Positions 16,073 through 57,821 of a DNA stretch of 64,000 bases are shown piece by piece. The DNA is taken from positions 960,001 to 1,024,000 of the forward strand of contig OZ245056.1 of NCBI GenBank assembly GCA_965224705.1, in the 5' to 3' direction. A program made the position numbers and the translations under genes. Within the stretch, counting starts at the first letter, position 1, and every line of letters starts with the position of its first letter. This DNA is from Spirochaetaceae bacterium. Lineage in GTDB: Bacteria > Spirochaetota > Spirochaetia > DSM-2461. The notes under the pieces were generated by a model, which did no database searches, was not told the origin of the DNA, and saw only the letters and a list, made by a program, of their open reading frames with translations.

Positions 16073-16280
16073 CTAAGGATGGCGCAAGCGTGTTTCCACT
16101 CGTAAACCTCGAATTTATCACGTATTTTACTCGGTAAGAGTTCCAGTGCCATGATTTCTCCAAAAGGCGGCTTTCAGTGTATCATGTTATGGTCGTCAGG
16201 ACAAGGAGAACTGGAGTATTAGTATGCTCTTTTTACACATAGCGTTCCGCTATTATGCGACGTTCTCTCCGCCAAGGCCG

Positions 16281-38716: not shown

Positions 38717-39550
38717 ATGATACCCCTGCCCAAATCAGTACCAAAAGTCCAAATCTCCCTGGACACCTTCTTCAAGAGACAGGCAAGGGAGTTTTTTAGC
38801 TCTTGCGGATACCTGGTTGAAACGGAACATGAAATGCTTAAAAGCCCCAAGAGGCTGGATGTCCTCCTTATCCAACAAAACACCGCCAGTGTAGAATTCG
38901 ACATATTCCACTACTTCGCTCCGTACAATCTGGTCAGCTACAAATCATACGGCGATGCCGTAAGAACACAGGACATTTACGACCTCTCCATATACACAAA
39001 CCTCTACCTGCGAGAAAACTCCAGAGCCAACTACAGCAACACAACCATCACACTCATCTGCTCCAGAACCCCGAGGAAATTCATCCGGGAACACAAAGAG
39101 TATTTCACCGAGACATGTCCCGGCCACTTCATCGGCAACTATGGAATGTACAAAATTCACATCATCAACATTGAAACCATCCAATTATCGGGACCTGACG
39201 GAGTGTTTCTATCCGAATTCTGCCGGGATATCGACCGCTTATCCGACCAGACCGAAATCAAGGAGTCCGGTTTCCCTAAACAGATTATTGACAAACTGCT
39301 TAAGGGCATTATAATGAGACTATCTATCTTTGAGGGTAAGGAGGACAATATGGTACCTGTTGCCGATGTAACGGAACTGATGAGGCCTCAACTTGAAAAG
39401 GCCTGGGATGACGGAATGGAAGAAGGCAAAAAAGAAGGCCGAAATGAGGAAAAAACCCAAACAGCCAGGCGCTTAAAAGCCGCCGGAGCCGACATGAAAC
39501 TCATCATCAAGGCCACCGGCCTGAGCGAAGAAGAGCTCAAAAAGCTCTAA
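38717..39550 (+). CDS. Type-C Rpn-like putative PD-(D/E)XK protein
   Basis: ETE...PKRLDVLLI...NLVSYKS..D motif and the Rpn-type C-terminal tail. Confidence 0.7.
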   Translation: MIPLPKSVPKVQISLDTFFKRQAREFFSSCGYLVETEHEMLKSPKRLDVLLIQQNTASVEFDIFHYFAPYNLVSYKSYGDAVRTQDIYDLSIYTNLYLRENSRANYSNTTITLICSRTPRKFIREHKEYFTETCPGHFIGNYGMYKIHIINIETIQLSGPDGVFLSEFCRDIDRLSDQTEIKESGFPKQIIDKLLKGIIMRLSIFEGKEDNMVPVADVTELMRPQLEKAWDDGMEEGKKEGRNEEKTQTARRLKAAGADMKLIIKATGLSEEELKKL

Positions 39551-39936
39551 CAGAAACAAACCTCCCCAAGGCCCCCCTGCGAAAGCCTCTTGACATTCGA
39601 GTCCTCTCCTCCGTGCCCTCCGTGCCTCCGTGAGAAACATCCCAAAAAGCTCATTCCCCCCAGAACCATTATTCTCATTTTACCGGGAACAGAATGAGAT
39701 ACGATTGCCCTGGTGGGGCGGGTTAATCAGGACCACTGGAAAGGAAACCAGCAAAGTTTCGTGTCTTTCGTGTTTTTCGTGCCTTTCGTGGTAAGAAATC
39801 CTCTCAATTGGCTTCCTGTCTTTTTTATAAACCACGAACCACACGAAAAGCACGAAAGGATTTCATCAATTATTCCCTGTACAGTGTCCCTATGCACAGC
39901 CCTAAACACTTCCCAAAAATCATGCTACTTTAACAC

Positions 39937-40758
39937 ATGATACCCCTGCCCAAATCATTACCAAAAGTCCAAATCTCCCTGGACACCTTCTTCAAGAGAC
40001 AGGCAAGGGAGTTTTTTAGCTCTTGCGGATACCTGGTTGAAACGGAACATGAAATGCTTAAAAGCCCCAAGAGGCTGGATGTCCTCCTTATCAAACAAAA
40101 CACCGCCAGTGTAGAATTCGACATATTCCACTACTTCGCTCCGTACAATCTGGTCAGCTACAAATCATACGGCGATGCCGTAAGAACACAGGACATTTAC
40201 GACCTCTCCATATACACAAACCTCTATCTGCGAGAAAACCCCAAAGCCAACTACAGCAACACAACCATCACACTCATCTGCTCCAGAACCCCGAGGAAAT
40301 TCATCCGGGAACACAAAGAGTATTTCACCGAGACATGTCCCGGCCACTTCATCGGCAACTATGGGATGTACAGAATTCACATCATCAACATTGAAACCAT
40401 CCAATTATCGGGGCCTGACGGCATATTTCTATCCGAATTCTGTCGGAATATCGACCGCTTATCCGACCAGACCGAAATCAAGGAGTCCGGTTTCCCTAAA
40501 CAGATTATTGACAAACTGCTTAAGGGCATTATAATGAGACTATCAATCTTTGAGGGTAAGGAGGACAATATGGTACCTGTTGCCGATGTAACCGAACTGA
40601 TGAGGCCTCAACTTGAAAAGGCCTGGGATGACGGAATGGAAGAAGGCGAAAGAAAAGCCATAACCCAAACAGCCAGGCGCTTAAAAGCCGCCGGAGTCTC
40701 CCTTGACATCATCATCAAGGCCACCGGCCTGAGCGAAGAAAAGATCCAAAAGCTCTAA
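39937..40758 (+). CDS. Type-C Rpn-like protein (copy 2)
   Basis: Near-identical paralog with a different tail. Confidence 0.7.
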   Translation: MIPLPKSLPKVQISLDTFFKRQAREFFSSCGYLVETEHEMLKSPKRLDVLLIKQNTASVEFDIFHYFAPYNLVSYKSYGDAVRTQDIYDLSIYTNLYLRENPKANYSNTTITLICSRTPRKFIREHKEYFTETCPGHFIGNYGMYRIHIINIETIQLSGPDGIFLSEFCRNIDRLSDQTEIKESGFPKQIIDKLLKGIIMRLSIFEGKEDNMVPVADVTELMRPQLEKAWDDGMEEGERKAITQTARRLKAAGVSLDIIIKATGLSEEKIQKL

Positions 40759-41154
40759 CAGAAACAAATCTCCCCCAAGCTCCCATAACTCCGCAAGCCC
40801 CCCTGCATTTTGAGTTCCCCACCTCCGTGCCCTCCGTGCCTCCGTGAGAAACACCAAAAAAAACTCATTTCGATCCCCCAGAACCATTATTCTCATTTTA
40901 CCGGGAACAGAATGAGATACGATTGCCCTGGTGGGGCGGGTTAATCAGGACCACTGGAAAGGAAACCAGCAAAGTTTCGTGTCTTTCGTGTTTTTCGTGC
41001 CTTTCGTGGTAAGAAATCCTCTCAATTTGCTTCCTGCCTTTTTTATAAACCACGAACCACACAAAAAGCACGAAAGGATTTCATCAATTATTCCTTATAC
41101 AGTGTCCCTATGCACAGCCCTAAACACTTCCCAAAAAACATGCTACTCTAATAC

Positions 41155-41988
41155 ATGATACCCCTGCCCAAATCAGTACCAAAAGTCCAAATCTCCCTGG
41201 ACACCTTCTTCAAGAAACAGGCAAGGGAGTTTTTCGGCTCTTGCGGATACCTGGTTGAAACGGAACATGAAATGCTTAAAAGCCCCAAGAGGCTGGATGT
41301 CCTCCTTATCAAACAAAACACCGCCAGTGTAGAATTCGACATATTCCACTACTTCGCTCCGTACAATCTGGTCAGCTACAAATCATACGGCGATGCCGTA
41401 AGAACACAGGACATTTACGACCTCTCCATATACACAAACCTCTACCTGCGAGAAAACCCCAGAGCCAACTACAGCAACACAACCATCACACTCATATGCT
41501 CCAGAACCCCGAGGAAATTCATCCGGGAACACAAAGAGTATTTCACCGAAACATGTCCCGGCCACTTCATCGGCAACTATGGAATGTACAAAATTCACAT
41601 CATCAACATTGAAACCATCCAATTATCGGGACCTGACGGAGTGTTTTTATCCGAATTCTGCCGGGATATCGACCGCTTATCCGACCAGACCGAAATCAAG
41701 GAGTCCGGTTTCCCCAAACAGATTATTGACAAACTGCTTAAGGGCATTATAATGAGACTATCAATCTTTGAGGGTAAGGAGGACAATATGGTACCTGTTG
41801 CCGATGTAACGGAACTGATGAGGCCTCAACTTGAAAAGGCCTGGGATGACGGAATGGAAGAAGGCGAAAAAAAAGGCGAAAAAAAAGCCATAACCCAAAC
41901 AGCCAGGCGCTTAAAAGCCGCCGGAGTCTCCATTGATATCATCATCAAGGCCACCGGCCTAAGCGAAGAAAAGATCCAGAAGCTCTAA
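41155..41988 (+). CDS. Type-C Rpn-like protein (copy 3)
   Basis: Near-identical paralog with a different tail. Confidence 0.7.
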   Translation: MIPLPKSVPKVQISLDTFFKKQAREFFGSCGYLVETEHEMLKSPKRLDVLLIKQNTASVEFDIFHYFAPYNLVSYKSYGDAVRTQDIYDLSIYTNLYLRENPRANYSNTTITLICSRTPRKFIREHKEYFTETCPGHFIGNYGMYKIHIINIETIQLSGPDGVFLSEFCRDIDRLSDQTEIKESGFPKQIIDKLLKGIIMRLSIFEGKEDNMVPVADVTELMRPQLEKAWDDGMEEGEKKGEKKAITQTARRLKAAGVSIDIIIKATGLSEEKIQKL

Positions 41989-42610
41989 CCGAAACAAATC
42001 TCCCCAGGCGAAAGCCCCCCTGCACTTGGCCGCTCCACCACAGAAAACCTCTCACGGAGGCACGGAGCACACGGAGATAATTCAATACTTCCCTTACACA
42101 TAACAGGGATATCTCTAGATATTTCCCCACCTCCGGGAGAAACACCCCTCTCCAAACCTCCCCAAGCCCCCATAACTCCGCAAGTCCCCCTGCATCCGAC
42201 AGCCCCACCTCCGTGCCCTCCGTGCTTCCGTGAGAAACACCCAAAAAACTCATTTCGATTCCCCGGAATCATTATTCTCATTTTACCAGGAACCCTGAAA
42301 AGGAAACCACCAAATTTTCGCGCCTTTCATAGTAAAGAAACTTCTCTCCCCTGATAGCCCATTACAGAAAACCTCTCACGGAGGCACGGAGTTCACGGAG
42401 CTTATCCAGGGCTTCCCTTATATCTCACAGGGATATCTCTCTGCATTTCAAAGAAAGAAAGAACCCTATCATGCACCGACTCAAGCAACCCTCCCTCCGC
42501 CTGCCTGCCGAAGCCCCGACTTGAGGCAGGTGCCTCTATGAGAAACGCCCCCGTGTCCTCCGTGAGAAATATCCCTTGCACAAACACCAAAACTCCCGTA
42601 ATGTAAATCC

Positions 42611-43477
42611 ATGGAATCAACCAGACCGTTCGATCCGCTGTCTGACTTGTTTGCCCGTGCCCTTCTGGGCGATAAAAAAAACACCAGCCTGCTGGCGAAT
42701 TTCATCAATGCGTTTTTAACCCCAAAGGGATTAAGTCCGGTTATCAGCGTCGAGATACTTAACCCCTACAACCTGAAAGAGTACTTCAACGACAAGGAAA
42801 CCATACTGGATGTCAAGGCAAGAGACAGTCACAAGCGCATTATCGACATAGAAATACAAATTTCCACCGGCGAGTATTTTGCCAATCGCAGTCTGCTCTA
42901 CTGGGCAAAGAACTACCAGAGCCAATTGAAGAAATCCGATGTGTACACCATGCTCAATCCGGTTATTTGCATCAATCTGGTTGGCACACCCATTTTTCCG
43001 CAGTTGGAGGAGTATTACACCTGCTTTCACATTACGGAAAAGGACAATCCAGAGCTGGTGTTGACGGATCATCTGTGCATCATGTTTATGGAGCTGTCGA
43101 AGATGACCTTTCCCAACAAAGACAACTTGACTTTTAGGAGCGACTTTGAGCGATGGTGCTATTTTTTCAAGTACGAAGGTTACTTAAAGGAGGACGAGAT
43201 GCGAGTGCTATTGGGAGACAACCCGTATATTCAGGAGGCCCATAAACTCTACACCACATTCACCGCCGATCAAGCCATGCTTGACAGGCTGGAAGCCAAA
43301 GAGAAATGGAGAAGGGATTATCTAAGCGGTCTGGATGAATCCTGGAACGATGGCATGGAAAAAGGCATAGAGAAAGGCATAACCCAAACAGTCAAAGACT
43401 TCAAGGCCGCCGGAGTCTCCCTTGACATCATCATCAAGGCCACCGGCCTAAGCGAAGAAGAGCTCAAAAAGCTCTAA
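42611..43477 (+). CDS. Rpn family recombination-promoting nuclease (type B), intact
   Basis: DPLSDLF, ILDVKARD..IIDIEIQ, RSLLYWAKNY. Confidence 0.9.
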   Translation: MESTRPFDPLSDLFARALLGDKKNTSLLANFINAFLTPKGLSPVISVEILNPYNLKEYFNDKETILDVKARDSHKRIIDIEIQISTGEYFANRSLLYWAKNYQSQLKKSDVYTMLNPVICINLVGTPIFPQLEEYYTCFHITEKDNPELVLTDHLCIMFMELSKMTFPNKDNLTFRSDFERWCYFFKYEGYLKEDEMRVLLGDNPYIQEAHKLYTTFTADQAMLDRLEAKEKWRRDYLSGLDESWNDGMEKGIEKGITQTVKDFKAAGVSLDIIIKATGLSEEELKKL

Positions 43478-44072
43478 CAGAAACAAGCCTCCCCAAGCGA
43501 AAGCCCCCAAGCCCCCTGCATCCGACAGCCCCACCTCCGTGCCCTCCGTGCCTCCGTGAGAAACACCAAAAAAAACTCATTTTGATCCCCCAGAACCATT
43601 ATTCTCATTTTACCGGGAACCCTGGAAAGGAAACCAGCAAATTTTCGTGTTTTTCGTGCCTTTCGTGGTAAGAAATCCTCTCAATTGGCTTCCTGCCTTT
43701 TTTATCAACCACGAACCACACGAAAAGCACGAAAGAATTTCATCAATTATTCCTTATACAGTAACCCTATTCCATCAGATGAAGGTAATTACTCACCAAT
43801 CTTTTATCCCATATTTCTCTGCGTATCTCCGCGCTCTCTGCGGTTTTACCCTATTCATGGTTTTTTAACCGCAGAGAGCGCAGAGTGTTCAAGATAATTA
43901 TTCACCTCACAACGATAACAAAAAGTTGACAAGCTCCTATTATTGAAGAAAACTCCATTCGATCCCTAAAAATCAGTGTTTTTATTTTCTCTGGGATAGA
44001 ATTAGATGCGATTGCCCTGATGACCCTATGCACAGCCCTAAACACTTCCCAAAAATCATGCTACTTTAACAC

Positions 44073-44894
44073 ATGATACCCCTGCCCAAATCATTACCAA
44101 AAGTCCAAATCTCCCTGGACACCTTCTTCAAGAGACAGGCAAGGGAGTTTTTTAGCTCTTGCGGATACCTGGTTGAAACGGAACATGAAATGCTTAAAAG
44201 CCCCAAGAGGCTGGATGTCCTCCTTATCAAACAAAACACCGCCAGTGTAGAATTCGACATATTCCACTACTTCGCTCCGTACAATCTGGTCAGCTACAAA
44301 TCATACGGCGATGCCGTAAGAACACAGGACATTTACGACCTCTCCATATACACAAACCTCTATCTGCGAGAAAACCCCAAAGCCAACTACAGCAACACAA
44401 CCATCACACTCATCTGCTCCAGAACCCCGAGGAAATTCATCCGGGAACACAAAGAGTATTTCACCGAGACATGTCCCGGCCACTTCATCGGCAACTATGG
44501 GATGTACAGAATTCACATCATCAACATTGAAACCATCCAATTATCGGGGCCTGACGGCATATTTCTATCCGAATTCTGTCGGAATATCGACCGCTTATCC
44601 GACCAGACCGAAATCAAGGAGTCCGGTTTCCCTAAACAGATTATTGACAAACTGCTTAAGGGCATTATAATGAGACTATCAATCTTTGAGGGTAAGGAGG
44701 ACAATATGGTACCTGTTGCCGATGTAACCGAACTGATGAGGCCTCAACTTGAAAAGGCCTGGGATGACGGAATGGAAGAAGGCCGAAATGAGGAAAAAAC
44801 CCAAACAGCCAGGCGCTTAAAAGCCGCCGGAGTTTCTATTGATATCATCATCAAGGCCACCGGCCTAAGCGAAGAAGAGCTCAAAAAGCTCTAA
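44073..44894 (+). CDS. Type-C Rpn-like protein (copy 4)
   Basis: Body has the same amino acid sequence as 39937..40758; tail differs. Confidence 0.7.
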   Translation: MIPLPKSLPKVQISLDTFFKRQAREFFSSCGYLVETEHEMLKSPKRLDVLLIKQNTASVEFDIFHYFAPYNLVSYKSYGDAVRTQDIYDLSIYTNLYLRENPKANYSNTTITLICSRTPRKFIREHKEYFTETCPGHFIGNYGMYRIHIINIETIQLSGPDGIFLSEFCRNIDRLSDQTEIKESGFPKQIIDKLLKGIIMRLSIFEGKEDNMVPVADVTELMRPQLEKAWDDGMEEGRNEEKTQTARRLKAAGVSIDIIIKATGLSEEELKKL

Positions 44895-45399: not shown

Positions 45400-45521
45400 G
45401 TTTTTAACCGCAGAGGACGCAGAGAGCGCAGAGGATTTAAGGTAATTATTCATCAAACTTTTACTCCATGTTTGACTTTTAACGTGTTGAAACTAATGTT
45501 CAAACCAACTTGTAAATTTTT
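45400..45521 (-). pseudogene. GxxExxY gene 3'-end remnant
   Basis: Reads LQVGLNISFNTLKVKHGVKSLMNNYLKSSA, matching the C-terminus of 53037..53444. A similar remnant lies at about 38150-38220. Confidence 0.65.
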
Positions 45522-45640
45522 TATTTTATTGATGATGAGGTAATGCACGATGCGACGGCGAAGATTTCCCGTCTCACCGGCCGTTCCACAATAAAAGCCA
45601 GAGAATTACCTGACCTGTAGTCTCTGGAGAATAAAAACAT
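45522..45640 (-). pseudogene. DGR reverse transcriptase remnant
   Basis: Reads SRDYRSGNSLAFIVERPVRREIFA and, after a small deletion, RIVHYLIINK. This matches the DGR-RT N-terminal motif Y.PG.S..FIV..PV.REIFAA.FRDRIVHH and lies directly after TR. Confidence 0.75.
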
Positions 45641-45661
45641 CCTCCTCCCGCTGACTCAGGC

Positions 45662-45802
45662 AAAAACCCTCACTGCACGGACATGTTTATCGTTGTTCTT
45701 GTTGTTGCCGTTCTGGCTGCCATTGTTGAAGTTCTGTTTCCACGCGTTGTTGGAACTGTTCTCTGAAGACGACCAGTAGTTGTTAGACGCGAAACCTCCA
45801 AC
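45662..45802 (-). repeat. DGR template repeat (TR)
   Basis: AAC-rich copy of 47946-48089; by hand alignment 24 of 27 substitutions are at TR adenines. Confidence 0.93.
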
Positions 45803-46016
45803 GGTTATAGCAAAGATGTCATGATAAGCAGGAACGCCCGCTCCCCTTATGCTCCTTTACCGCCGCCAAACAAGACGGCGGTCTCTTTGCCGCTTTTTAC
45901 CTAAGCCTTGCTCGCTCCATGAAGCCATTGCCCCATGGATTCCGGCAGACGTACCTCCAATTTCAGTATCTCAAAATTATCCAGAAATTCCTCCAGATGC
46001 TCCTTTTTATCCATAG

Positions 46017-47701
46017 CCCCTATTTCTCACCAAGACCTTGAGACAAAGCAGGCTTCCCATGCTAAAATATTTACATGAAAAAAAATAACAAACAAAAAGA
46101 AGCCCGCTTTGCTAATACAGAGTGTAAAGCCCATCAGCTCGAATTGCAAGGGATGGAAATCGGAAAATCCCGCAAAATTATTGTAAAGAATGACGGCAAG
46201 GTCAACAGTTCCGATGCCGGATTTCTTCTCCTCCAGCAGGTTGAGCAGAAGCACAGAATTATTGAAAAGCTGTCAGATTTTTTCACCGATAAAAGAGATC
46301 AGGAAAAAATTACACATAGCCTGGCTACTCTTCTGAAACAGAGAATCTTCGGAATCTGTCAGGGCTATGAAGATCTCAATGATCATGAACAATTGCGCGA
46401 AGATCCACTGCTTCAATATATATGTGGGCGGGATGATAAAACGCCAGTTGCCGGAAAGAGCACCCTGAACAGATTGGAACTCGGTCATGAGCTGGATGAA
46501 AAAACCAGGGACCGGTACAGCAAAATCACCTGGGATGCCAGGGGGATTGAAGAGCTTCTCTGTCAACTGTTTCTTGAGAGTTTCGAGGAGCCGCCGGAAA
46601 CCCTGATTCTGGATTTTGATGCCACCGACATTCCCATCCACGGCGAGCAGCAGCAGCGGTTTTTTCACGGATATTACGATCACTACTGCTACCTTCCGCT
46701 CTACGTGTTCTGTGATGATTTTCCCCTGATCGCCCGGCTGCGGCCGTCCAGCCTGGATGCCTGTGAGGGTACCGAAGAGATTCTGGTCAAGCTGGTTGGC
46801 GCGATCAGGGCCAAATTTCCTGATGTTCGTATCATTTTTCGTGGAGACTCGGGCTTCTGCCGTGAGAGTATCCTGAAACAGTGTGAGATATTGAAAGTCA
46901 GATATATCACCGGTATGGCAGGAAATACGAGGCTGCTGAAGAAGATTGATCCGCAGATGGTCAGGGCTGAAAAGCTCTTCGGTAAAAGCAAAGAAGCCGA
47001 ACGTGTTTTTACCCGTTTTTCCTGGAAGACCGAAAGCAGTTGGAGTCGCAATCGGGATGTCATTGCCAGGGTGGAACATCTGCCGGGCAAGAAAAATCCC
47101 CGCTTTATTGTGACGGACATTTCTGCTGAAGAAGGGGATGCCCAATCGCTGTATGAAGATGTCTACTGTGCACGCGGCGATATGGAGAATCGCATCAAAG
47201 AACAGCAGCTTTATCTGTTTGCCGACCGCACCTCCACCTGGTGGATGAGTTCGAATCAGCTTCGATTGTATTTCTCGACAATCGCCTATATTTTCTTTGT
47301 CCATCTTCGAAGAACAATTCTGCAGGTCAGCGGTGATGAAACTCGAAGCATGTCCTCTACAATCCGATTAAGGATGCTTAAAGTTTCGGCCGCTGTAAAG
47401 ATTACGGTTCGCCGAGTCTGGATCAGTCTTCCGGAGAGTTTTCCCTGGTGGGACATCTGGATACGAACATCCCGGGCCATCTGAGCGGTAATAAAAACAG
47501 TTGATAGTTCTCATCTGGATTCCCTGGGGAAGCTGTGCACCGAGGGTTGAAAAAATGCAAAAAAAATCAGAAGAAATCGACTTAAATTGGACGGAAATAA
47601 CAAGGATCAATCAACTGGAAACTTTTTGTTTGATATATTAGCGGAGAGAACAGAAATTCTCCAGGATTTTTATGCAATTTTATGTTGGTGAGAAATAGGG
47701 G
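46017..47701 (+). mobile_element. IS1380 family element, 1685 bp (copy 2)
   Basis: Same TIRs as copy 1; 4-bp TSD ATAG. Confidence 0.95.
46075..47484 (+). CDS. IS1380 family transposase, intact
   Basis: SSDAG, GYEDLND, LDFDATD..HG.Q, RGDSGF, Y.ARG.MENRIKE; 469 aa. Confidence 0.95.
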   Translation: MKKNNKQKEARFANTECKAHQLELQGMEIGKSRKIIVKNDGKVNSSDAGFLLLQQVEQKHRIIEKLSDFFTDKRDQEKITHSLATLLKQRIFGICQGYEDLNDHEQLREDPLLQYICGRDDKTPVAGKSTLNRLELGHELDEKTRDRYSKITWDARGIEELLCQLFLESFEEPPETLILDFDATDIPIHGEQQQRFFHGYYDHYCYLPLYVFCDDFPLIARLRPSSLDACEGTEEILVKLVGAIRAKFPDVRIIFRGDSGFCRESILKQCEILKVRYITGMAGNTRLLKKIDPQMVRAEKLFGKSKEAERVFTRFSWKTESSWSRNRDVIARVEHLPGKKNPRFIVTDISAEEGDAQSLYEDVYCARGDMENRIKEQQLYLFADRTSTWWMSSNQLRLYFSTIAYIFFVHLRRTILQVSGDETRSMSSTIRLRMLKVSAAVKITVRRVWISLPESFPWWDIWIRTSRAI

Positions 47702-47888
47702 ATAGCCTTGTTGGCCCGGTAAATGCTCCGCACCAGTTCTATTCCATCCCGCTTCATATCCTGGCCCAGAGTATACTTGTATTCCCTGGGAAAATCCTTT
47801 GTGACTTCAAATATTTTCAGCACTAACTTGTAGGTGTCCTGATACACCGGCAAACGATAATATAACGCCATAATTTCAAAAAAAATCG

Positions 47889-47922
47889 TGCCTTAGCGGC
47901 AGCCTGCGCTGCCGCTAAGGCA
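47889..47922 (-). promoter_or_regulatory. Perfect 15-bp hairpin downstream of VR (DGR homing hairpin and/or terminator)
   Basis: TGCCTTAGCGGCAGC-4 nt-GCTGCCGCTAAGGCA, 20 nt after the target stop codon. Confidence 0.75.
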
Positions 47923-47942
47923 ATGGTTAAATAGATAAATAG

Positions 47943-49385
47943 TTAAAAAGCCCTCACCGCACGGACATATCCGCCGCCGTACTTGCCGCCGCTGCCGTAC
48001 TGGCTGCCATCGCTGAAGTACTGCCCCCACGCGTCGCTGGAACTGAACTCTGAAGACGACCAGTAGGAGTAAGACGCGAAACCTCCAACAGTATCCTTTT
48101 GTTTATATAACTCATTCAACTCATCTTTGGAAGGGAGAAACCAGTCATCATAGCCGCCAAGTTCAAAGTCATAACAAAGCCGGGCCGCGTAGTTGCCCGA
48201 TCCCAACTTGTTGACAATCTTCTCCGTATTGCTTTTGCCGCTCCCTATGGCCGTGGATGTTCCACCCACTGTAGTTCCATATTCTCCCCATCCGACATCA
48301 CCCTGATCCGATGGGGCCGCCTCCAGATATCGCCAGCCATCGGAATAACTCCCCTTGTCGTAGAAGACGATTCCTCCAGCGGGGCCGGTATCACCAATGG
48401 AATAAACCACTACCTGAATGGATGCAACCCCACTCCAGGCCCCAGACTGTCCATCCCCATCCTTTGCACGCACCTGCCAGTAATGGGTCTGCAAGTTCGT
48501 CAATGCCGATGCTGGCGTGTGGGACGGGTCTGTTTCACTAGCCGATGGTGCGCTGTTCAGCCCCGCCAGGCTGTCGGCTATTCGCACCTCATAGCCTGCC
48601 GCACCCGGTACCGCATCCCAGCTCAGCGTCGGGGTTGTATCCTCAGTGGTACTGCCATCGGCAGGATTCAAGCCGCTGACAGCCCCCCATTCCACCTCCA
48701 GGTTGTGCACATTACTCCAGAACCCAAACTGTCCATCCCCATCCTTTGCCCGCACCTGCCAGTAATGGGTCTGCAAGTTCGTCAATGCCGATGCTGGCGT
48801 GTGGGACGGGTCTGTTTCACTGATCAATGGCGCGCTGTTTAGCCCCGCCGGGCTGTCGGCTATACGCAGTTCATATCCCGCCGCTCCGAGCACCGCGTTC
48901 CACCTGAAGGTCGGTGTGGTATCCGTAGTGGAACTCCCATCGGCGGGATTCAGGCCGCTGATTGTGGTCATGGTGAATTTCCACCCATCTGTCCACTTTC
49001 CCCACTGGCCGCCTTGCTTTGCCCGGCCCCGCCAGTAGTAAACGGTGTTCAGGGAAAGCGGCGCATCGGTCAGCATAATGTTGGCAGCATGGCTGTTCCC
49101 ATCGTAAAGCGTATTCCCAAAATCCACAGAAGAGGCTATCTGCAGGTGGTAGGCTTCCGCCCCCCGTGCTTCGCTAATAATGAAACGCTGAAACACAAGA
49201 CTTCCGCCATCGGTCGGTGTATGCGCCTCCACATCGTCCACACTCTCCACCGTATGATACCCCTGATAATTAACACCATCAGGATCAGCAGGATTATCCC
49301 ACACCCGGCAGCCACCCAGGGTCAACACAACCCCGAGCACCAACAAAAGAGCCCCTAAAACCCGAAATAATACCCAGCCCTTCAT
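47943..49385 (-). CDS. DGR target lipoprotein with FN3/Ig-like repeats and a C-terminal DUF1566/C-type-lectin-fold-like domain
   Basis: Lipobox LGGC; two 94-aa repeats; YSIGDTGPAGGIVFYDKG, DWFLPSKDEL, YWSSSE...VRAVRAF. Confidence 0.9.
   Translation of the reverse strand: MKGWVLFRVLGALLLVLGVVLTLGGCRVWDNPADPDGVNYQGYHTVESVDDVEAHTPTDGGSLVFQRFIISEARGAEAYHLQIASSVDFGNTLYDGNSHAANIMLTDAPLSLNTVYYWRGRAKQGGQWGKWTDGWKFTMTTISGLNPADGSSTTDTTPTFRWNAVLGAAGYELRIADSPAGLNSAPLISETDPSHTPASALTNLQTHYWQVRAKDGDGQFGFWSNVHNLEVEWGAVSGLNPADGSTTEDTTPTLSWDAVPGAAGYEVRIADSLAGLNSAPSASETDPSHTPASALTNLQTHYWQVRAKDGDGQSGAWSGVASIQVVVYSIGDTGPAGGIVFYDKGSYSDGWRYLEAAPSDQGDVGWGEYGTTVGGTSTAIGSGKSNTEKIVNKLGSGNYAARLCYDFELGGYDDWFLPSKDELNELYKQKDTVGGFASYSYWSSSEFSSSDAWGQYFSDGSQYGSGGKYGGGYVRAVRAF
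47946..48089 (-). repeat. DGR variable repeat (VR)
   Basis: Last 48 codons of the target gene; matches TR. Confidence 0.93.
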
Positions 49386-49927
49386 TGCAGATGCTCCTCC
49401 AACCGCTTGATTTCTTCCAGAAGATCGCTGTACTGGGCGGCGAGCTTCTCACGGTTGGGCGTCGTCAGGGCGGATATGCTTCCCGCCCCAGCCAGAGCCA
49501 GTCCCCCTCCCCACAGGGAATAGGTCAAAGCATCGTAGAGTTCCGCCTGCCCGCGATAGCTCTCCGTGTCATTGCTAAGAAGGGCGGACTGGTAATTCTG
49601 ATAGGCCTCATTAGCGGAAACAAAGGTATACACACCGGTACCTATAGCTGCTACGCCCAGGGGAATAGTAATCCAGGCCCAGGCCTTATGCGCCCGGATA
49701 CGCCTGTTCACAGTGTCCAGCTTGCCCTTCAAGTCGGCCTCTTCCCCCCGCAATTCCTCCAACTCGGCCTCCATAACAGCCCGGTAGTTCTTCATCAGTT
49801 CCAGCAGTCTCTCGCTCTGCTCCCCCGATGCCATATCCGCCCCGGCCTGCAGATCGGGAGGCAGCTCCTGGGCGGTAAGTGGAGTTATCGCGCACACCGC
49901 CAGTATAAGCACTGCAATCATCCTCAC
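49382..49927 (-). CDS. Hypothetical exported/membrane coiled-coil protein, coupled to the DGR target
   Basis: Signal peptide, coiled coil, two hydrophobic segments; 4-nt ATGA overlap with the target start. Confidence 0.7.
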   Translation of the reverse strand: MRMIAVLILAVCAITPLTAQELPPDLQAGADMASGEQSERLLELMKNYRAVMEAELEELRGEEADLKGKLDTVNRRIRAHKAWAWITIPLGVAAIGTGVYTFVSANEAYQNYQSALLSNDTESYRGQAELYDALTYSLWGGGLALAGAGSISALTTPNREKLAAQYSDLLEEIKRLEEHLQ

Positions 49928-50080
49928 GGTTTTTCTCCTTTCCTATCCAAATTCCCGTACTAGACCCCATTATAATACTAAAAAACCCTGTCAAGATAGA
50001 AGAGCAGCCTATGTCCCCAGCAGGGCAATCGCATCTCATTCTATCTCAAAAAGCGTTGTGCGGTGAGTAATGACCTTGAT

Positions 50081-50933
50081 CACTCTGCGCTCTCTGCGTC
50101 CTCTGCGGTTAAAAAACCATGAAGGGGGATAAAACCGCAGAGGACGCAGAGTAACGCAGAGAAATATGGGGAATGAACCGCAGAGTAACGCAGAGAAAAA
50201 TAGGGTAAAAGATTGGCGAATAATTATTATGCTCTCTCTGCCGTAAAAAACCATGAATAAGGTAAAACCGCGGAGATACGCAGAGAAACATGGAGTTTTC
50301 TTCAACAGTAGAAGTTTGTCAACTCTTCGTTATCGTTGTGAGATAAATAATGACTTTGATCACTCTGCGCTCTCTGCGTCCTCTGCGGTTAAAAAACCAT
50401 AAAGGGGGATAAAACCGCAGAGGACGCAGAGTAGCGCAGAGAAAAATAGGGTAAAAGATTGGCGAATAATTATTATGCTCTCTCTGCCGTAAAAAACCAT
50501 GAATAAGGTAAAACCGCGGAGATACGCAGAGAAACATGGAGTTTTCTTCAATAGTAGAAGTTTGTCAACTCTTCGTTATCGTTGTGAGATAAATAATGAC
50601 TTTGATCACTCTGCGCTCTCTGCGTCCTCTGCGGTTAAAAAACCATAAAGGGGGATAAAACCGCAGAGGACGCAGAGTAGCGCAGAGAAAAATAGGGTAA
50701 AAGATTGGCGAATAATTATTATGCTCTCTCTGCCGAAAAAACCATGAATAAGGTAAAACCGCGGAGATACGCAGAGAAACATGGAGTTTTCTTCAATAGT
50801 AGAAGTTTGTCAACTCTTCGTTATCGTTGTGAGATAAATAATGACTTTGATCACTCTGCGCTCTCTGCGTCCTCTGCGGTTAAAAACCATGAATAAGGTA
50901 AAAAAACCGCAGAGGTACGCAGAGAACGCGGAG
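50081..50933. repeat. Tandem array of ~245-280-bp hairpin-containing units (about 3.3 copies)
   Basis: Units start at 50081, 50361, 50607 and 50852; each has ctctgcgtcctctgcggtt...aaccgcagagg inverted arms. Confidence 0.9.
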
Positions 50934-50942
50934 GGTTGATTT

Positions 50943-52103
50943 TCAAGTTTTTTCCTCCCTTCTGACAGCATGGGGCCATCCGGCTACGTTGAATCCATTG
51001 CGTACCATGCTGTTGATTCCGGCGTAGATAAGATACATGCTTTCGCTACTTTCTCCGGTTAAATTGCTCCAGTATCTTAAATTGTCAAAGTGTTTTTCCT
51101 GTATGGTTTTGGCGGATTTGATTTCTATGCCATGACTTTTCCATCCGAAGTCTACAATCAAGTCAAGTTCCTTCTGATGGTTGTCGCGCCAAAAGTGCAG
51201 GTTGTAGGGTTCGCCGGTATTGTAGTTTGCTTTGACGAATTCCATGATGATGAAGTTCTCGAAGATTCCGCCTTTCAGGTAGTGAAAATCAAGTTCTTCT
51301 TTCCTGCGTATTCCAAGTAAGTGGCATAATAACCCGGTATCCGTAAAGTATATTTTTGGGTTTTTGACCAATCTTTTATTGTAGTTTCGATGGTACGGGC
51401 GGAGCTTGTAGATCAAAAAACTGGATTCTAATACCGACAGCCAGTCTTTGATGGTATTATGCGAGACCCCGCATTCATTGGACAGCGGAGCTAAATTCAA
51501 TATCTGTCCGGTTCTCCCAGCCAATAACTTCATAAACTTAAGGAAGACATCCAGTTTTGTGATGTTTTTGATTAACCGTAGATCTTTTTCAATATATGTC
51601 GATATGTAATTCTTGTAGAATGACTGCGCCCTGATGTGTTTGTCGTATATACGGGGGTAGGAGCCTTTGAACAGGAGTGTTTCCAGATTTCGCTCCAGAG
51701 GGCGTAGTTCTTCGGCACTAAAGGGGAGCAGGATAGAAATGCCAATCCGCCCGGCCAGGGATTGGCTTATCCGTTCCATCAATAGGTAATTATGAGAACC
51801 CGTGATGACGAATTGACCGGTTTCACTTGTCTGATCGGCATGGGTCTGCAGGTAGGAAATCAATGACGGAACTCTTTGTATTTCATCAAGTATAATGCTG
51901 CGCTGGTATTTTTCCAGAAATCCTCGTGGGTCATTGACCGCGAATTCCCGGTTGTCGAGGTCTTCAAGGGATACGTAGGCGAAGCTGTTGAACAGTTTTT
52001 TGGCCAGTGTAGTTTTCCCGGATTGCCTGGGGCCTAATATCGCAATAATGGGAAATTCCCGTGTAAGAAGAGATAGTTCTTTCTCTATTGCTCTATTTAT
52101 CAT
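50943..52103 (-). CDS. AAA+ ATPase with DUF4143-type C-terminal domain
   Basis: GPRQSGKT, ILDEIQR, ITGS, PKIYFTDTGL, FWRD..KELDLI...EIKS. Confidence 0.9.
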   Translation of the reverse strand: MINRAIEKELSLLTREFPIIAILGPRQSGKTTLAKKLFNSFAYVSLEDLDNREFAVNDPRGFLEKYQRSIILDEIQRVPSLISYLQTHADQTSETGQFVITGSHNYLLMERISQSLAGRIGISILLPFSAEELRPLERNLETLLFKGSYPRIYDKHIRAQSFYKNYISTYIEKDLRLIKNITKLDVFLKFMKLLAGRTGQILNLAPLSNECGVSHNTIKDWLSVLESSFLIYKLRPYHRNYNKRLVKNPKIYFTDTGLLCHLLGIRRKEELDFHYLKGGIFENFIIMEFVKANYNTGEPYNLHFWRDNHQKELDLIVDFGWKSHGIEIKSAKTIQEKHFDNLRYWSNLTGESSESMYLIYAGINSMVRNGFNVAGWPHAVRREEKT

Positions 52104-52382: not shown

Positions 52383-54975
52383 GGTTTTTTAACCGCAGAG
52401 GACGCAGAGAGCGCAGCGGGTTGTCACGGTAATTACTCAGCAAACTCTTATCCTATATTTCTCTACGTATCTCCGCGATCCCTGCGGTTTTATCCCCCTT
52501 CATGGTTTTTAACCGCAGAGGACGCAGAGAGCGCAAAGGGTTGTTCACGGTAATTACTCAGTAAACTTTTTATCTTATATTTCTCTGCGTATCTCCGCGA
52601 TCCCTGCGGTTTCATCCCTCCTCATGTTTTTTTAACCCCAGAGGATGCAGAGAGCGCAGAGGGTTGTTCAAGGTGATTACTCACCAAACTTTTATCCTAT
52701 ATTTCTCTGCGTATCTCCGCGATCCCTGCGGTTTTATCCCCTTTCATGGTTTTTAACCGCAGAGGACGCAGAGAGCGCAGAGGGTTGTTCACGGTAATTA
52801 CTCAGCAGACTTTTTATCCTATATTTCTCTGCGTTCTCTGCGGTTCATTCCCCATATTTCGCTGCATATCTCCGCGATCCCTGCGGTTTTACCTTATTCA
52901 TGGTTTTTTACTCCAGAAGATTCATGGTAACTATTCACCACTCTTTTACCCTATTTTTCTCTGCGTTACTCTGCGTCCTCTGCGGTTCATCCCCTATATC
53001 TCGCTGCGTATCCTTGCAATCTCTGCGGTTTTTACCTTATTCATGGTTTTTTACCGCAGAGGGTTCAAGGTAATTGTTCACCAATCTTTTTATTCCATGT
53101 TGGAGTTTTAACGTGTTGAAATTAATGATCAAGCCGACTTGCAATCTTTTTATTTTTAGATAATTCAGTAATTGAGCTTCATCGATTTTGGTAAGTTCTT
53201 TCACAGCTTTACACTCAATGATTACTTTATCCTCTACAAAAAAATCACATCGGAAACCAACTGCCAATTTTAATCCCTTATACTCAAGCGGCATTTCATG
53301 TTCTTTTTTAAAGGAAAGCCCAGCTATTTCCATTTCTTTTGCCAATGCAGACTGATATACACTTTCAAGGAATCCACAACCAAGTTCTTTGTGTACCTCA
53401 ATAGCACATCCAATTATTTTTTCAGTAACTTCATCTACTTCCATCTTTCTCCGCGTATCTCCGCAGTTTACACCCTCCTTCATGTTCTTTAACCGCAGAG
53501 GGTTCAAGGTAATTGCTCACCAATCCTTTATTCCATTTTTTTAACCGCAGAGGACGCAGAGAGCGCAGAGGGCTCATTGGTAAATATTCACCAACTTTTT
53601 AGCCTGTTTTTTTCTGCTATACTCCGCAAGATCGCGGTTTTTACCTTATTCTTGGTTTTTTAACCGCAGAGGACGCAGAGAGCGCAGAGGGTTCAGAGTA
53701 ATTATTGATCAAACTTTAGATCCTATATCTCTCTGTGTATCTCCTCGCTAGTTTTTTTTACCGCAGAGGGTTCAGAGTAAATAATCACCAAACTTTTATC
53801 CTATATTTCTCTGCGTATCTCTGCGATCTTTGCGGTTTATACCCCCTGCTAGTTTTTTACCGTAAAGTGTTCAAGGCAATTATTTACTAATCTCTTTATC
53901 CCATATTCCTCTGTGGTACTCTGCGTCCTCTGCGGTTCATTCCCCACAATTCTCTGTAGTACTCCGCAAACTCTGCGGTTCTTACCTTATTCTTGGTTTT
54001 TTAACCGCAGAGAGCGCAGAGGATTCAGAGTAAATAATCACCAATCTTTTATCCTATATTTCTCTGCGTATCTCTGCGGTTTATACCCCCTGCTAGTTTT
54101 TTACCGTAAAGTGTTCAAGGCAATTATTTACTAATCTCTTTATCCCATATTCCTCTGCGTAACTCTGCGCCCTCTGCGGTCCATTCCCCACATTTCTCTG
54201 CGTATCTCTGCGTCCTCTGCGGGTCATTCCCCACATTTCTCTGCTATACCCCGCAAACTCTGCGGTTCATCCCCCACTTCTCTCTGTGTCCTCTGCGGTT
54301 CATCCCCTACATTTCTCTGCCGTACCCCGCAACTCTGCGGTTCATCCCCCACATTCCTCTGCGTATCTCTGCAATCTCTGCGGTTTATACCCCCTGCTAG
54401 TTTTTTTACCGTAAAGTGTTCAAGGCAATTATTCACCAAGCTCTTTATCTCATATTTCTCTGCCGTACTCCATAAACTCAGCAGTTCATCCCCCATATTC
54501 CTCTGCGTATCTCTGCGTCCTCTGCGGTTCACTCCCCACATTTCTCTGCCGTACCCCGCAACTCTGCGGTTCATCCCCTACATTTCTCTGCGTATCTCTG
54601 CAATCTCTGCGGTTTATACCCCCTGCTAGTTTTTTTACCGTAAAGTGTTCAAGGCAATTATTCACCAACCTCTTTATCTCACATATCTCTGCCGTACCCC
54701 GCAAACTCTGCGGTTCATCCCCCACATTTCTCTGCAGTACCCCGCAAACTCTGCGGTTCATCCCCCACATTTCTCTGCTATACCCCGCAAACTCTGCGGT
54801 TCATCCCCCATATTCCTCTGCGTATCTCTGCGTCCTCTGCGGTTCATTCCCCACATTTCTCTGCCGTACCCCGCAAACTCTACAGTTCATCCCCCACATT
54901 CCTCTGCGTATCTCTGCGTCCTCTGCGGTTCATTCCCCACATCTCTCTGCAGTACCTGCAAACTCTGCGGTTTAT
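52383..54975. repeat. Dense array of CTCTGCG-based repeats around the GxxExxY gene
   Basis: Many copies of aaccgcagaggacgcagagagcgcagag and ctctgcgtatctctgcgtcctctgcggtt in ~35-125-bp modules. Confidence 0.9.
53037..53444 (-). CDS. GxxExxY protein (PD-(D/E)XK-like)
   Basis: IIGCAIEVHKELGCGFLESVY, RCDFFVEDKVIIECKAV, AQLLNYLK, GLIINF. Confidence 0.92.
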   Translation of the reverse strand: MEVDEVTEKIIGCAIEVHKELGCGFLESVYQSALAKEMEIAGLSFKKEHEMPLEYKGLKLAVGFRCDFFVEDKVIIECKAVKELTKIDEAQLLNYLKIKRLQVGLIINFNTLKLQHGIKRLVNNYLEPSAVKNHE

Positions 54976-54988
54976 CCTCAGTTGGATA

Positions 54989-57821
54989 CTACTTCACCTG
55001 ATAAAACGAATAAGGCTCATTACTCCTATCCCCCGTACCAAAAGTAGGATGCTGCTCCCCAGAAGTCAGCTCCAGCACCTGCCGGTAAACACTGTCCTCC
55101 AGCTCATTCACACTGACAAATCCATCCCGATTAGCATCGGCCAGTCCCCCTTCCAGCGACCGGACAATCGCATAGGTAAAAGCTCCCCCGCCCCAATCCG
55201 AGCGCTCCCAGGCCGCCTCATTCCCCCGCGCCGCGCTGATAACATTGTAGCCGCTGGCCAGAACCAGCTGGTTCACCACCGCGTCAATGTCGGCAGCCCC
55301 CCGCCGTCCAGTGGCCTGACCGCTGCGGCAGGAATCCAGCATAACCAGCACCTTCTCGGCATACACGGAACTCTGCAAATCCTCCTCCAGATCGCGGTTC
55401 TTGTAGCCCAGGGAACTGGGCCGCTCCATATCGCCGTCATGACCCATCAGATAGTACTCGTTCCGGGCATCGGTGGTACCATGACCGGCAAAGTAGAACA
55501 CCGCCACATCGTCCTTGCGGGCTTCGGAGAGAAAGTAGTTCACGCCGTCCTTTATGTTGGAGCGGGTGGCCTCCTCGTCGTAGAGGGTTTTGATCTTCAC
55601 ATCTTTATAGATGTCGGCCCCGCCCTGCTTTCGGAAGAGTGCGGCGATCTTCTCGGCATCGCTTCTGGCGTATTGCAGATTTTGATCCTCCCTGGCATAG
55701 CGGCTAACCCCCACCGACAGCACATACATGGAGGGCGGATTCTTTATCCCCAGCGAGTTCAGATGCAGAACCTGGGTCTCCGAGGCCACATTGCGGGAGT
55801 TGTAGGCGGTCACCTCCACCTCATTTTTTCCCTTCTTTAAGATGAGAGGAATGGTTTTGCGCAGTTCCCGGCTGGCCACGCCCCCCAGACGGCGCAGCCC
55901 CCGCGCCGCGGCATCCGCCAGAGGAGCCCCGTTGATCCGCACATCAATCTTACTTATACCGAAACTGCGGTCCACCGCCTGAATATCCATCTCGGCGGCG
56001 TTGTACACATCTTCCCCGCCTCGGGGCGATACGATAATCAACACCGGCTTGGCGTTCACAAAGGTCAGTTCGCCGTAAACCCCGGCATCCTTGCTGTCGT
56101 CCACCAGCCCCTGGGTGCTTTCCCGCAGATTTTCCACGAGAAAAGTCGATTCCGTCGGCTGGTTGTAGTCATGGGTTTCGGCCTTTTGAATCCAGCCGCT
56201 TCGCCCGTACACGCCCACCTTGTACCAGCCGTTCAGTTCGCCCACGGCGGTGAACACCGCCCCCCTGGCCAAAGAAGCGATGCGCGGCGATTTCTCCGAT
56301 GCGCCGCTGCGCACAATAATACTGTCCCTGGCCGAAACCTGCTTGTTCAAAGCCAGCACCGGCGATCCCACCGTCTGTCCCACCGGCACATCGATTTTTT
56401 CATCCAGCATGGTGCCAAACTGGGGACTGCTAACCAATACCCGCATGGGCAGCGTACTGCCCTTGAATGACGACTTCACGCCTATGGTGGCATCCATGCT
56501 TATGGTGTCGTCCATTTTGAACACGGTGAGATTCTTGGGCTGACTGTACAGGTCTATGGCGGAGGCGCTTTGTTCCAGCACAACCCGTACATCCTCTATA
56601 TCGTAACGGGAGGCGTTTTTGATAATGAAATGGAAGTCCACTCCCTCGCGGATCTGAATCATGCCGTCGCCGTTGCCGGTGGAGGTGGCCGAATCACCAT
56701 CGTCTATGGTGTAGGTGTAGAGAACTTCGGGAAGGCTAAAGATGTCCAGGGCGCCCAGTTCCTGTATCTGATTCCTTGAAAAGGACATGCCGTTGGCGTA
56801 GAATGCCTCGGCCACCTGACGGGACAGATAGTCATTGCGGCCCAGTTCCAGCAGATGAGACGCATCAAACTCCACCCGTCCGTCCAGCAGGGCCAGTTCC
56901 AGGTATTCCTGTGCCGATATTGGAGGCTTCCACGCTAATAAGCGCACGGCTGCGGTAGGCGGCGGTGCCGGTAAAAGATAGTTCCGCTTTGGCACGGGGC
57001 GGCAAATCGGGTTTACCCCGTTCAAAGGCCTCCGGGCTGTCCAAAACCGCAGCCAAGGCGGTCGATCCATAGAGGAGATAGTAGTCCGGCAGTCTGGGGT
57101 CAAGCTCCTCCGCCGCCCAGCTAAGCGCGCTGGGAAAGCCGGAATCGGCAAGGGCCGCGTCGGCTCCCCAGCCCAGAAGCAGGTTCACGGTATCCGTATG
57201 CCTGTGCGCAACGGCCCAGTAGAGGGCGGTGGTGCCGCTTCCCAATGCGTCCACATCGGCCCCCGCCTCCAGAAGCAGTCCGCATAGTTCATCGCTGCCC
57301 CGGTAGGCGGCCCAGTGCAGCGGCCGGTATCCATCCTTACGCGGCAGGTTCACATCCGCACCGGCATGAACCAGCGCGGCGGCAATCTCGCTCTGATTGT
57401 TCCAGACGGCATGATGCAGATAGCCCGCCCCGTCCTCATCGCTCCATTCAATATCCACGGAGTCTGTCGGACTTTAAGACTTCGAGGCGATTTTTGATGA
57501 TTTTTTTCCGATACAAGGCGGCAAAAGCGGAGCGTAGCTGGGCTCCGTGAGCATTTTGACAACGCGGCAGCGGGAAAAAAGGGCAAAAATCGAGCCGTGA
57601 GGCGTAAGTCCGACAGACTCCACGGCTCCATCGTCCAGCAGGCTCACAAACGGCACAGCCGCCCCCTGGAGCAGCAGTTCCAGGTAGGATTTCTGCCTCA
57701 TTGTGTCCAAATCGGCGGCCTGAGCAGTGCCGTCCACGCTGGAATCCTCCGGACTCGTCTTGCAGGCGGCCAGCGTCAGCACCGCCAGTACCGACAGAAC
57801 GTATCGCATACTTTTTTTCAT
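54989..57821 (-). pseudogene. Lipoprotein with ankyrin repeats, SH3-like and caspase (C14) domains; MITE-interrupted and frameshifted
   Basis: Lipobox LAAC near 57821; ankyrin motifs (PLHWAA, GADVN) at 57458-57150; frame change near 56910; FYFAGHG and LDSCRSG dyad motifs. Confidence 0.75.
57460..57620. mobile_element. MITE family A, 161 bp
   Basis: TIRs as above; 4-bp TSD CACG. Confidence 0.92.

Follow-up and report, generated by a model that had tools for sequence, protein, structure and literature searches.

Diversity-generating retroelements (DGRs) act by copying: RNA of a template repeat (TR) is reverse-transcribed by a reverse transcriptase (RT) together with Avd, with misincorporation opposite adenines, and the cDNA replaces a variable repeat (VR) in the target gene at the initiation of mutagenic homing (IMH) region, aided by a hairpin (PMC5758913 and PMC3240598). 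We analyzed a window of 64,000 nucleotides from a Spirochaetaceae bacterium (assembly GCA_965224705.1, contig OZ245056.1, positions 960,001 to 1,024,000; the genome is called G000 below), in which the locus at window positions 45522..49385 carries a TR/VR pair and a lectin gene. This locus is very probably a real Legionella-type DGR that is now disabled, its target, a predicted surface-lipoprotein C-type lectin, being frozen in its last variant.

The DGR of Legionella pneumophila (LdtA; CLec2/DUF1566 category 'd', architecture B1; Wu et al. 2018, PMC5758913) has the same order of target, avd, TR and RT, and its DUF1566/Lcl_C lectin likewise stands at the C-terminus of a lipoprotein. The focal locus displays the DUF1566-class VR domain and the avd-TR-RT order of architecture B1, the RT side of this likeness being known from pairwise identity only: P0002, a full-length RT of the same lineage, is 50.6% identical to a plasmid RT of L. 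pneumophila whose cassette runs DUF1566 gene, four-helix bundle, RT. Unlike its Legionella counterpart, the focal element is chromosomal in a spirochaete, its target has an Ig/FN3-like stalk, its RT and avd are destroyed, and its congeners hold 14-35 dispersed targets. The preliminary description of the locus had named Bordetella phage BPP-1, Legionella LdtA and Treponema denticola TvpA as precedents for adenine-specific TR-to-VR variation as a DGR signature; that signature is supported here, and of these precedents the Legionella one comes nearest.

The T. denticola DGR (TvpA family; PMC4891356) is alike in belonging to a spirochaete, in having lipoprotein targets scattered over the chromosome and in leaving targets behind in strains that lack RT and TR, but it has FGE-sulfatase targets, an HRDC accessory gene and at most seven targets, whereas the focal target has an Lcl_C domain and is accompanied by avd. 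Loci of the FGE/HRDC type are separate in G000, where a second DGR, and not the focal one, is Treponema-like. Thiohalocapsa PB-PSB1 (bioRxiv 10.1101/2023.09.22.558884) shares with the focal locus an RT hit by insertion sequences (IS) or miniature inverted-repeat transposable elements (MITEs), a clean TR/VR pair, intact and broken alleles occurring together, and multiple targets; it differs in having 15 targets that belong to several DGRs, with intact systems acting in trans, whereas no intact DGR RT was found in G000. RT-inactivated DGRs with clean TR/VR pairs are also documented in DiGReF (PMC3521204). Phage BPP-1 (Mtd; PMC3240598) is alike in its adenine-specific substitution, in an IMH that differs from the TR and in a downstream hairpin, but its target is a phage tail fibre and its hairpin has an 8-bp stem and a GRNA loop, as against a 15-bp stem and a GCAG loop here; no phage context was seen around the focal locus, where no search aimed at phage genes was made. 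Inactivated DGRs, IS/MITE-degraded loci and leftover spirochaete targets are already described, and the focal locus is a new example of them. We found no published account of this particular system in searches covering DGRs in spirochaetes, molluscs and bivalves and the genomes of bivalve-symbiont Spirochaetaceae, with thin coverage of subscription journals.

Template repeat, variable repeat and past retrohoming

The TR (45662..45802, minus strand) spans 141 nt with 46 adenines and 13 AAY codons, and the VR (47946..48089, minus strand) forms the last 48 codons of the target, its 144 nt including an extra codon at about 47985-47992. The two differ at 24 of the 46 TR adenines and at 3 of the 95 other bases (Fisher p = 1.6e-11). 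The adenine changes comprise 16 A>G, 7 A>T and 1 A>C, while the remaining three (T>C, C>T and T>C) all fall within the last 30 nt. The single 3-nt insertion in the VR is located in an AAC run, and the mismatch counts are unchanged across all six co-optimal gap placements; in-frame indels beside AAC and a few non-adenine changes have been described for DGRs (PMC5758913). On rechecking, the coordinates and translations given for both repeats in the preliminary description were exact and its hand counts (24 at adenines, three elsewhere near the 3' end, one extra codon) were reproduced, and the tabulation by TR base that it called for gave a strong adenine bias rather than a spread over all four bases. 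Among the 13 AAY codons, positions 1 and 2 changed at 17 of 26 sites and position 3 at none of 13, a count used as a guard against plain selection on surface loops. The theoretical capacity of the TR is ~10^27 DNA and ~10^24 protein variants (codons 7-45). Homology between TR and VR ends at the repeat edges, and the TR is not part of an ordinary coding sequence, because its open frame is 66 codons and it is placed between avd and the RT stub.

An intact target gene (47943..49385, minus strand) ends in the VR and encodes a 480-aa predicted lipoprotein, with a lipobox-like LGGC motif (Cys26, read by eye), Ig/FN3-like repeats (two Ig-like PF25788 matches) and a C-terminal C-type lectin domain (PF07603, E = 9e-11; Lcl_C, which we take to be equal to DUF1566). 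An AlphaFold2 model of the last 153 residues, built on a 75-sequence alignment, has a predicted local distance difference test (pLDDT) score of 95. Among the fold matches listed for the model, the strongest is 8q4e, the C-terminal domain of Legionella Lcl (Foldseek E = 9.6e-8, Z = 15.8, root-mean-square deviation 1.9, 117 residues aligned), a CLec-fold assignment in line with the PF07603 match; a fimbrial protein of Bacteroides ranks next at Z 13.5, ahead of C-type lectins at Z 8-10. Mtd, TvpA and TaqVP are absent from this list, which excludes nothing. The variable codons sit in the part of the lectin domain that is most variable among homologs.

Two further DGR features accompany the VR. At its 3' end, a conserved block (47943..47968, minus strand) would serve as the IMH. 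Base 47950 within it is C in the focal VR and in all 64 congener VRs described below, and T in both surviving TRs, so that one of the three non-adenine differences is a conserved IMH-type base; it looks like a conserved IMH/IMH* difference (a concept from PMC3240598) rather than decay. The stop codon is followed after 20 nt by a hairpin (47889..47922, minus strand) with a GC-rich 15-bp stem, a 4-nt loop and a T run after it (-20.9 kcal/mol, z = -6.6; 0 of 200 shuffles equally stable). This is a candidate DGR target-recognition hairpin or cruciform, and possibly a terminator in addition. Rfam returned nothing at the DGR loci and group II intron domains at one other locus (L001) only.

Evidence that the pair once worked comes from an orthologous cassette in the congener G012 (C1:403-407 kb), whose RT carries the motifs LPIGNLTSQ and YVDD. 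The two TRs are identical at 129 of 141 positions, and at the five of the 12 differing sites where neither TR has an adenine, each VR matches the TR of its own genome (5/5). Non-adenine mismatches between TR and VR accordingly number 3/95 and 1/94 within G000 and G012, as against 8/95 and 10/94 across them. Because each VR follows its own TR at all five diagnostic sites, the comparison shows, as far as two genomes can be read in this way, directional TR-to-VR transfer, that is, past retrohoming. Simple counting on the same two sequences gave dN 0.024 and dS 0.55 for avd, dN 0.14 and dS 1.13 for the lectin scaffold, and 0.27 and 0.43 for the VR; avd was under strong purifying selection before it was broken, and the lectin scaffold likewise.

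Related cassettes occur more widely. Full-length RTs of the lineage, P0002 and P0003, are found in ENA assemblies on contigs of 9 and 46 kb, and a further contig of 23 kb encodes P0121; P0002 and P0003 are 77% and 74% identical to the G012 RT and contain both of its motif types. Cassettes of the same order with adenine-biased TR/VR pairs were seen in a Bacteroidales metagenome-assembled genome (MAG; L079) and a Treponema MAG (L080), and an exact 34-nt TR motif occurs in nine metagenome contigs, most with avd and an RT at 40-55% identity, which are more distant cassettes. Among the 38 family genomes, no intact match to P0002 was found; two genomes matched, both with broken copies, at a cut-off of 1e-20 below which the G000 stubs fall. 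No intact cognate RT was found in JGI metagenome contigs and no P0002 relative in viral contigs, and plasmids gave distant matches only, all under 60% identity.

Lesions in the cassette and the state of the element

Running from the target along the minus strand, the order target, hairpin, avd, TR and RT remnant given in the preliminary description is correct, as judged by folding of the hairpin, Pfam and NCBIfam matches of avd and tblastn matches of the RT stub. Omitted from that description were an IS1380 element that splits avd and a deletion that removes the end of the gene. The 5' part of avd (47706..47871, minus strand; Pfam bAvd E = 1.7e-8, NCBIfam DivGenRetAVD E = 2e-7) runs for about 55 codons from the start at 47871 and is 150/167 nt identical to G012 avd. 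It is followed by the IS1380-family element (46017..47701, plus strand; 1,685 nt, transposase open reading frame (ORF) at 46075-47484), beyond which lie about 20 codons of an avd 3' remnant (45954..46012, minus strand; 53/58 nt identical to G012). Measured against the orthologous gene of G012, about 110 nt are then deleted and the gene end is gone; in the alignment with the G012 stretch L036 the match jumps from 7255 to 7517, an interval that includes a 147-nt insert specific to G012. The element is assigned to IS1380 by its transposase (NF033539, 343 bits against a cut-off of 180) and by termini and 4-bp target-site duplications at eight copies, those of the focal copy lying at 46013-46016 and 47702-47705. 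The 1,685 nt are identical to a copy near G000:C1:1.449-1.451 Mb, which argues that the insertion into avd is very recent. G000 holds eight near-full-length copies and many partial ones; another copy in the window (~14400-16080; G000:C1:974385-976075) is 99.6% alike.

Between avd and the TR, the spacer (45803..45949, minus strand), putatively the 5' part of the DGR RNA, is preserved, and spacer and TR together are 273/291 nt identical to G012. Beyond the TR, an RT stub (45513..45628, minus strand), recognized by tblastn to related full-length RTs and without any Pfam match, covers about residues 62-102 in a relative of 408-413 aa. Its 5' part has lost about 200 nt along with the start, a 13-nt deletion shifts the frame, and with some 40 of 408 codons left all catalytic regions are gone, including the (I/V/L)GxxxSQ and YxDD motifs of an intact RT. 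The RT remnant of the preliminary description is thus present, its loss of the start and of ~90% of its length having gone unstated, and the title of that description, naming a diversity-generating retroelement, holds for a genuine TR/VR pair but overstates a working element. The expectation in that description that RT-anchored DGR finders would probably miss the locus agrees with the five RVT_1 matches of G000, none of which lies here, and with the lack of a Pfam match for the stub. With neither an intact RT nor an intact avd, the locus is filed as a DGR-derived relic and no functional DGR. Since the RT is deleted to a stub and avd is split by IS1380, the target is likely frozen.

When active, the element would have had its TR-containing RNA copied by Avd and an error-prone RT, and the cDNA would have taken the place of the VR by way of IMH and hairpin, varying at random the surface with which a possible outer-membrane adhesin or receptor binds; its putative ligand is likely a host or microbial surface molecule in a mollusc. 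As to the order of decay, RT deletions would have come first, since they are found in other strains and the 3' breakpoint appears to be shared with a second focal-type RT stub in G000 (C1:229.5 kb), and IS1380 last, since it is identical to another copy and absent in other strains. The G012 cassette is broken differently, by inserts in the avd end and in the RT and by an internal RT deletion with a frameshift.

The focal stretch or part of it was found in 20 of 22 listed sequencing runs, of which those labelled by habitat are mollusc metagenomes; all were searched as assembled contigs, which drop rare variants, and X11-X20, with a small share of the stretch, were set aside. Contigs of X1 reproduce both IS junctions, the RT stub and the VR with 0 differences. 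In X2, from another study, a 196-nt contig carries a VR identical to the focal one. The joint of the focal RT 5' deletion recurs in X4 with few substitutions. Contigs that skip the IS (46005>47707) occur in X2, X4 and X8, and contigs from these three runs, when placed on the G012 cassette, show an avd end without interruption; these joints were drawn from contig placement at 80% likeness and may come from other strains or organisms. The RNA run X9 covers VR, hairpin, avd and TR with contigs that are short and of low depth, and this coverage is no evidence of transcription.

Several of these points weigh against a frozen, disabled element. X1 may be the source sample; avd alleles free of both IS and insert in X2, X4 and X8 mean that the populations are not uniformly broken; and in X4 and X8 other VR alleles are linked to the same hairpin and avd (27-29 differences), which could be other frozen strains, paralogs or current diversification. 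The G000 assembly is 95% complete, leaving room for an unbinned replicon, and inactivity was read from assembled contigs only. For the target and the hairpin themselves, the predicted lipoprotein status depends on a motif recognized by eye, and the GCAG loop departs from the GRNA consensus, which is from phage DGRs (PMC3240598).

An unlikely alternative to a disabled element is that the VR is still diversified in trans: the intact TR would be transcribed and served by a matching Avd and RT encoded on a plasmid or mobile element missing from the assembly, or by some other RT in G000. No lesion affects the TR, the spacer, the IMH, the hairpin or the target; in Thiohalocapsa, trans activity has been reported for loci that lack an RT (bioRxiv 10.1101/2023.09.22.558884); the full-length cognate-lineage RTs sit on ENA contigs of 9-46 kb; and in the congener G009, whose assembly holds neither TR nor intact RT, retrohoming looks very recent. 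Within G000, however, an RVT_1 search gave five matches, none at the focal locus: three are one 426-aa family, of which the copy examined was identified as a group II intron RT, so that the intact RTs are of that type, and the other two belong to the separate FGE-sulfatase/HRDC DGR type, are ~27-32% identical to P0002 and are both broken, one (C1:2211596) interrupted by a 165-nt repeat that opens with a stop codon and the other (C1:526.9 kb) interrupted and truncated. No intact DGR RT was found in the 95%-complete assembly by the RVT_1 and stub searches, and rescue by another G000 RT was rejected, the other DGR RTs being broken and of a different type. The lack of P0002 relatives in viral contigs and the low plasmid identities also speak against trans activity, as does the identical VR in two studies; coverage of the RT core of L036, absent in X2 and X9 and patchy in X4 and X8, points the same way weakly and does not amount to absence.

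It is improbable that a broken lineage was assembled while co-occurring strains with a working cassette pass VR alleles to it by recombination. The IS-skipping contigs, the uninterrupted avd end in an X8 contig, and an RT N-terminus piece and a 281-nt RT-core piece from X8 at ~80% identity would fit such a mixture, and intact and IS-broken DGR variants have been reported side by side (bioRxiv 10.1101/2023.09.22.558884); yet an intact cassette is not covered from end to end by any contig, other organisms can be the source of joints placed at 80% likeness, and none of the 38 family genomes has an intact P0002 match. That the lesions are assembly artefacts of a repeat-rich long-read MAG around an intact cassette is largely refuted and hardly credible: IS copies and short repeats do abound in G000, but the IS has clean 4-bp target duplications, independently assembled contigs show the same junctions, and the RT deletion is met again, with few substitutions, in material from another study. 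A TR that is a pseudogenised paralog of the lectin 3' end, with the bias due to ordinary selection on surface loops, is refuted: the variable codons do coincide with the part of the domain most variable among homologs, but AAY third positions are fixed here (0/13), and in congener AAY codons changed at positions 1-2 they differ in 6-15%, compared with 54-55% further upstream in this domain; in addition, TR and VR are homologous no further than the repeat edges, the TR lies between avd and RT, and each VR follows its own genome's TR at 5/5 non-adenine sites.

Neighbouring genes, other retroelements and repeats

Upstream of the target, a gene for a 181-aa protein (49382..49927, minus strand) has a stop codon that overlaps the target start and is likely a co-transcribed partner. 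By eye, the N-terminus of the protein looks like a signal peptide, and a coiled-coil-like stretch and two hydrophobic segments can be made out; it has no match in Pfam or NCBIfam and over 109 aa weakly resembles (26%, pairwise E = 8e-5) the C-terminus of the caspase-domain gene that precedes the target in G012. A rule by which every target would stand behind a caspase or membrane gene found no support: in a crude search of the 64 congener targets only the G012 cassette fits it. A promoter scan was at chance (5 vs 5.1).

The Treponema-like DGR family of G000 lies at C1:2202573-2212753 (L010) and at C1:1539243, 2907843, 519976, 525906, 221856 and 1539746. It comprises FGE-sulfatase targets, two with N-terminal caspase domains, TR copies at 2210369 and 1539243, HRDC-like pieces, an intact avd and an RT interrupted by the 165-nt repeat; its seven VR-like ends show 14-22 differences at 33 TR adenines and 2-22 at 85 other bases. 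The repeat (G000:C1:2211908-2212072) is palindromic and MITE-like, with TA ends and ~125 genomic copies of at least 110 nt, and its ~147-nt relatives interrupt DGR genes of G012. An apparently intact FGE-type cassette in G012 (C2:387670-391261, L064) consists of an HRDC-like gene, a 336-aa RT, a TR and a caspase+FGE target; no other DGR RT seen in the genus is unbroken.

A 273-281-aa gene without a Pfam match forms tandem arrays at window positions 38717-44894 and G000:C1:222869-233305; tblastn matches it 16 times in the genome, 13 of these at 80% or more, and PD-(D/E)XK_2 (Rpn-like) genes are interspersed in both arrays (12 matches). Each array borders on an RT stub and has a DGR target nearby, which suggests a duplicated island. 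At 54989-57458, behind an ankyrin ORF, a 720-aa ORF combines SH3 and caspase/CHAT domains; tblastn found seven more caspase-domain genes, and several in the genus are fused to or precede DGR-variable lectins. Dense short imperfect intergenic repeats with periods of 43, 122 and 246 nt fill 50050-50950 and 52400-54980, and one 27-nt core among them has 55 exact genomic occurrences. Elsewhere in G000 (C1:2342400-2348100, L014), a long gene consists of many ~95-aa Ig/FN3-like repeats as in the target stalk and has no Lcl_C match.

Paralogous targets in congeners

No second VR for the focal TR was found in G000 (3.0 Mb in one contig) by blastn, tblastn or a PF07603 search, and a genome-wide scan for AAC-rich stretches gave four matches, namely the focal TR, two FGE-type TRs and one simple repeat. 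The congeners G009, G012 and G001 gave 39, 23 and 20 lectin-domain matches and 38, 16 and 14 matches to the IMH/hairpin block, the conserved VR 3' block being present at the 38 G009 sites. A filter on the end motif, which removed places without the exact terminal motif, fragments and the TR itself, kept 35, 14 and 15 VRs, 64 in total and all different. Among the 14 genus genomes, the TR motif occurs in G000 and G012 only, the lone G009 match being a VR. The VRs were compared against the two surviving TRs as proxies; at AAY codons, positions 1-2 were changed in 52-61% and position 3 in 8-16%.

In G009, 55 pairs of paralogs are at least 93% identical upstream, many at 99-100% and some more than 2 Mb apart, and these pairs differ at 1173 of 2585 TR-adenine sites (45%) and at 164 of 3850 other sites (4%); they are not independent of one another, and gene conversion in the upstream part could make them look more recent than they are. 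The G009 target set traces to one TR family. A hairpin of -11 kcal/mol or stronger stands 3' of 33/35 G009 and 14/14 G012 targets but of only 3/15 in G001, whose VRs may stem from a different TR, because they are more distant and mostly lack the strong hairpin. The G009 RT is in pieces, G001 has no P0002 match at 1e-20, and no intact cognate RT was found in the four target-bearing genomes (G000, G012, G009 and G001). A lipobox-like motif is present in 26/35 G009, 8/14 G012 and 13/15 G001 targets. In the 14 of 64 targets scanned for domains, the stalks vary (FN3, Big_2, He_PIG, Rib), and three of the 14 have an N-terminal caspase domain. A stretch of G001 (C1:686000-691500, L062) holds an avd copy, interrupted by IS elements, beside genes for FN3-stalk lipoproteins that end in a different tandem-repeat domain and have no lectin. 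Lcl_C paralog clusters also occur in the more distant spirochaete-class genomes G036 (L159-L163; 16 matches), G027 (L162) and G033 (L164), in the fetched stretches of which no TR, avd or RT was seen.

Published counts of targets include seven non-adjacent ones (PMC5758913), up to six per MAG (PMC11661182), 15 in Thiohalocapsa PB-PSB1, 18 loci in Trichodesmium (PMC8867640) and 76 remote targets across 21 cyanobacterial genomes (PMC7517822). The 35 targets of G009 exceed the per-genome figures cited in these sources, though higher ones could stand in supplementary tables (Wu 2018 Table S1, Vallota-Eastman Table S3); this count depends on a borrowed TR and belongs to a genome other than the focal one.

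On this basis we propose, tentatively, that in a mollusc-associated Spirochaetaceae lineage one Legionella-type DGR family built 14-35 surface lectin-tipped lipoproteins per genome, that near-identical copies scattered over the genome were subject to retrohoming up to a very recent time, and that the RT was then lost separately in each lineage amid IS/MITE expansion, a 'duplicate, diversify, freeze' course of a host-recognition or antigenic repertoire for which the focal locus would be a surviving template. The focal locus itself is an ordinary DGR outcome, a recently disabled element of a known class; the lineage-level pattern in its congeners is a moderately interesting lead, and the locus is its key. 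The surviving TRs in G000 and G012 let 64 orphan paralogs in three congeners be read as DGR products, which RT-anchored surveys would not count; the survey approach of Roux et al. (PMC8144416) does not detect remote targets. If the proposal is true, these paralogs would constitute dozens of natural, selected variants of one lectin scaffold in an animal-associated bacterium, and thus a natural series on what cellular DGR-variable lipoproteins bind and on whether DGRs get dropped once useful variants are fixed.

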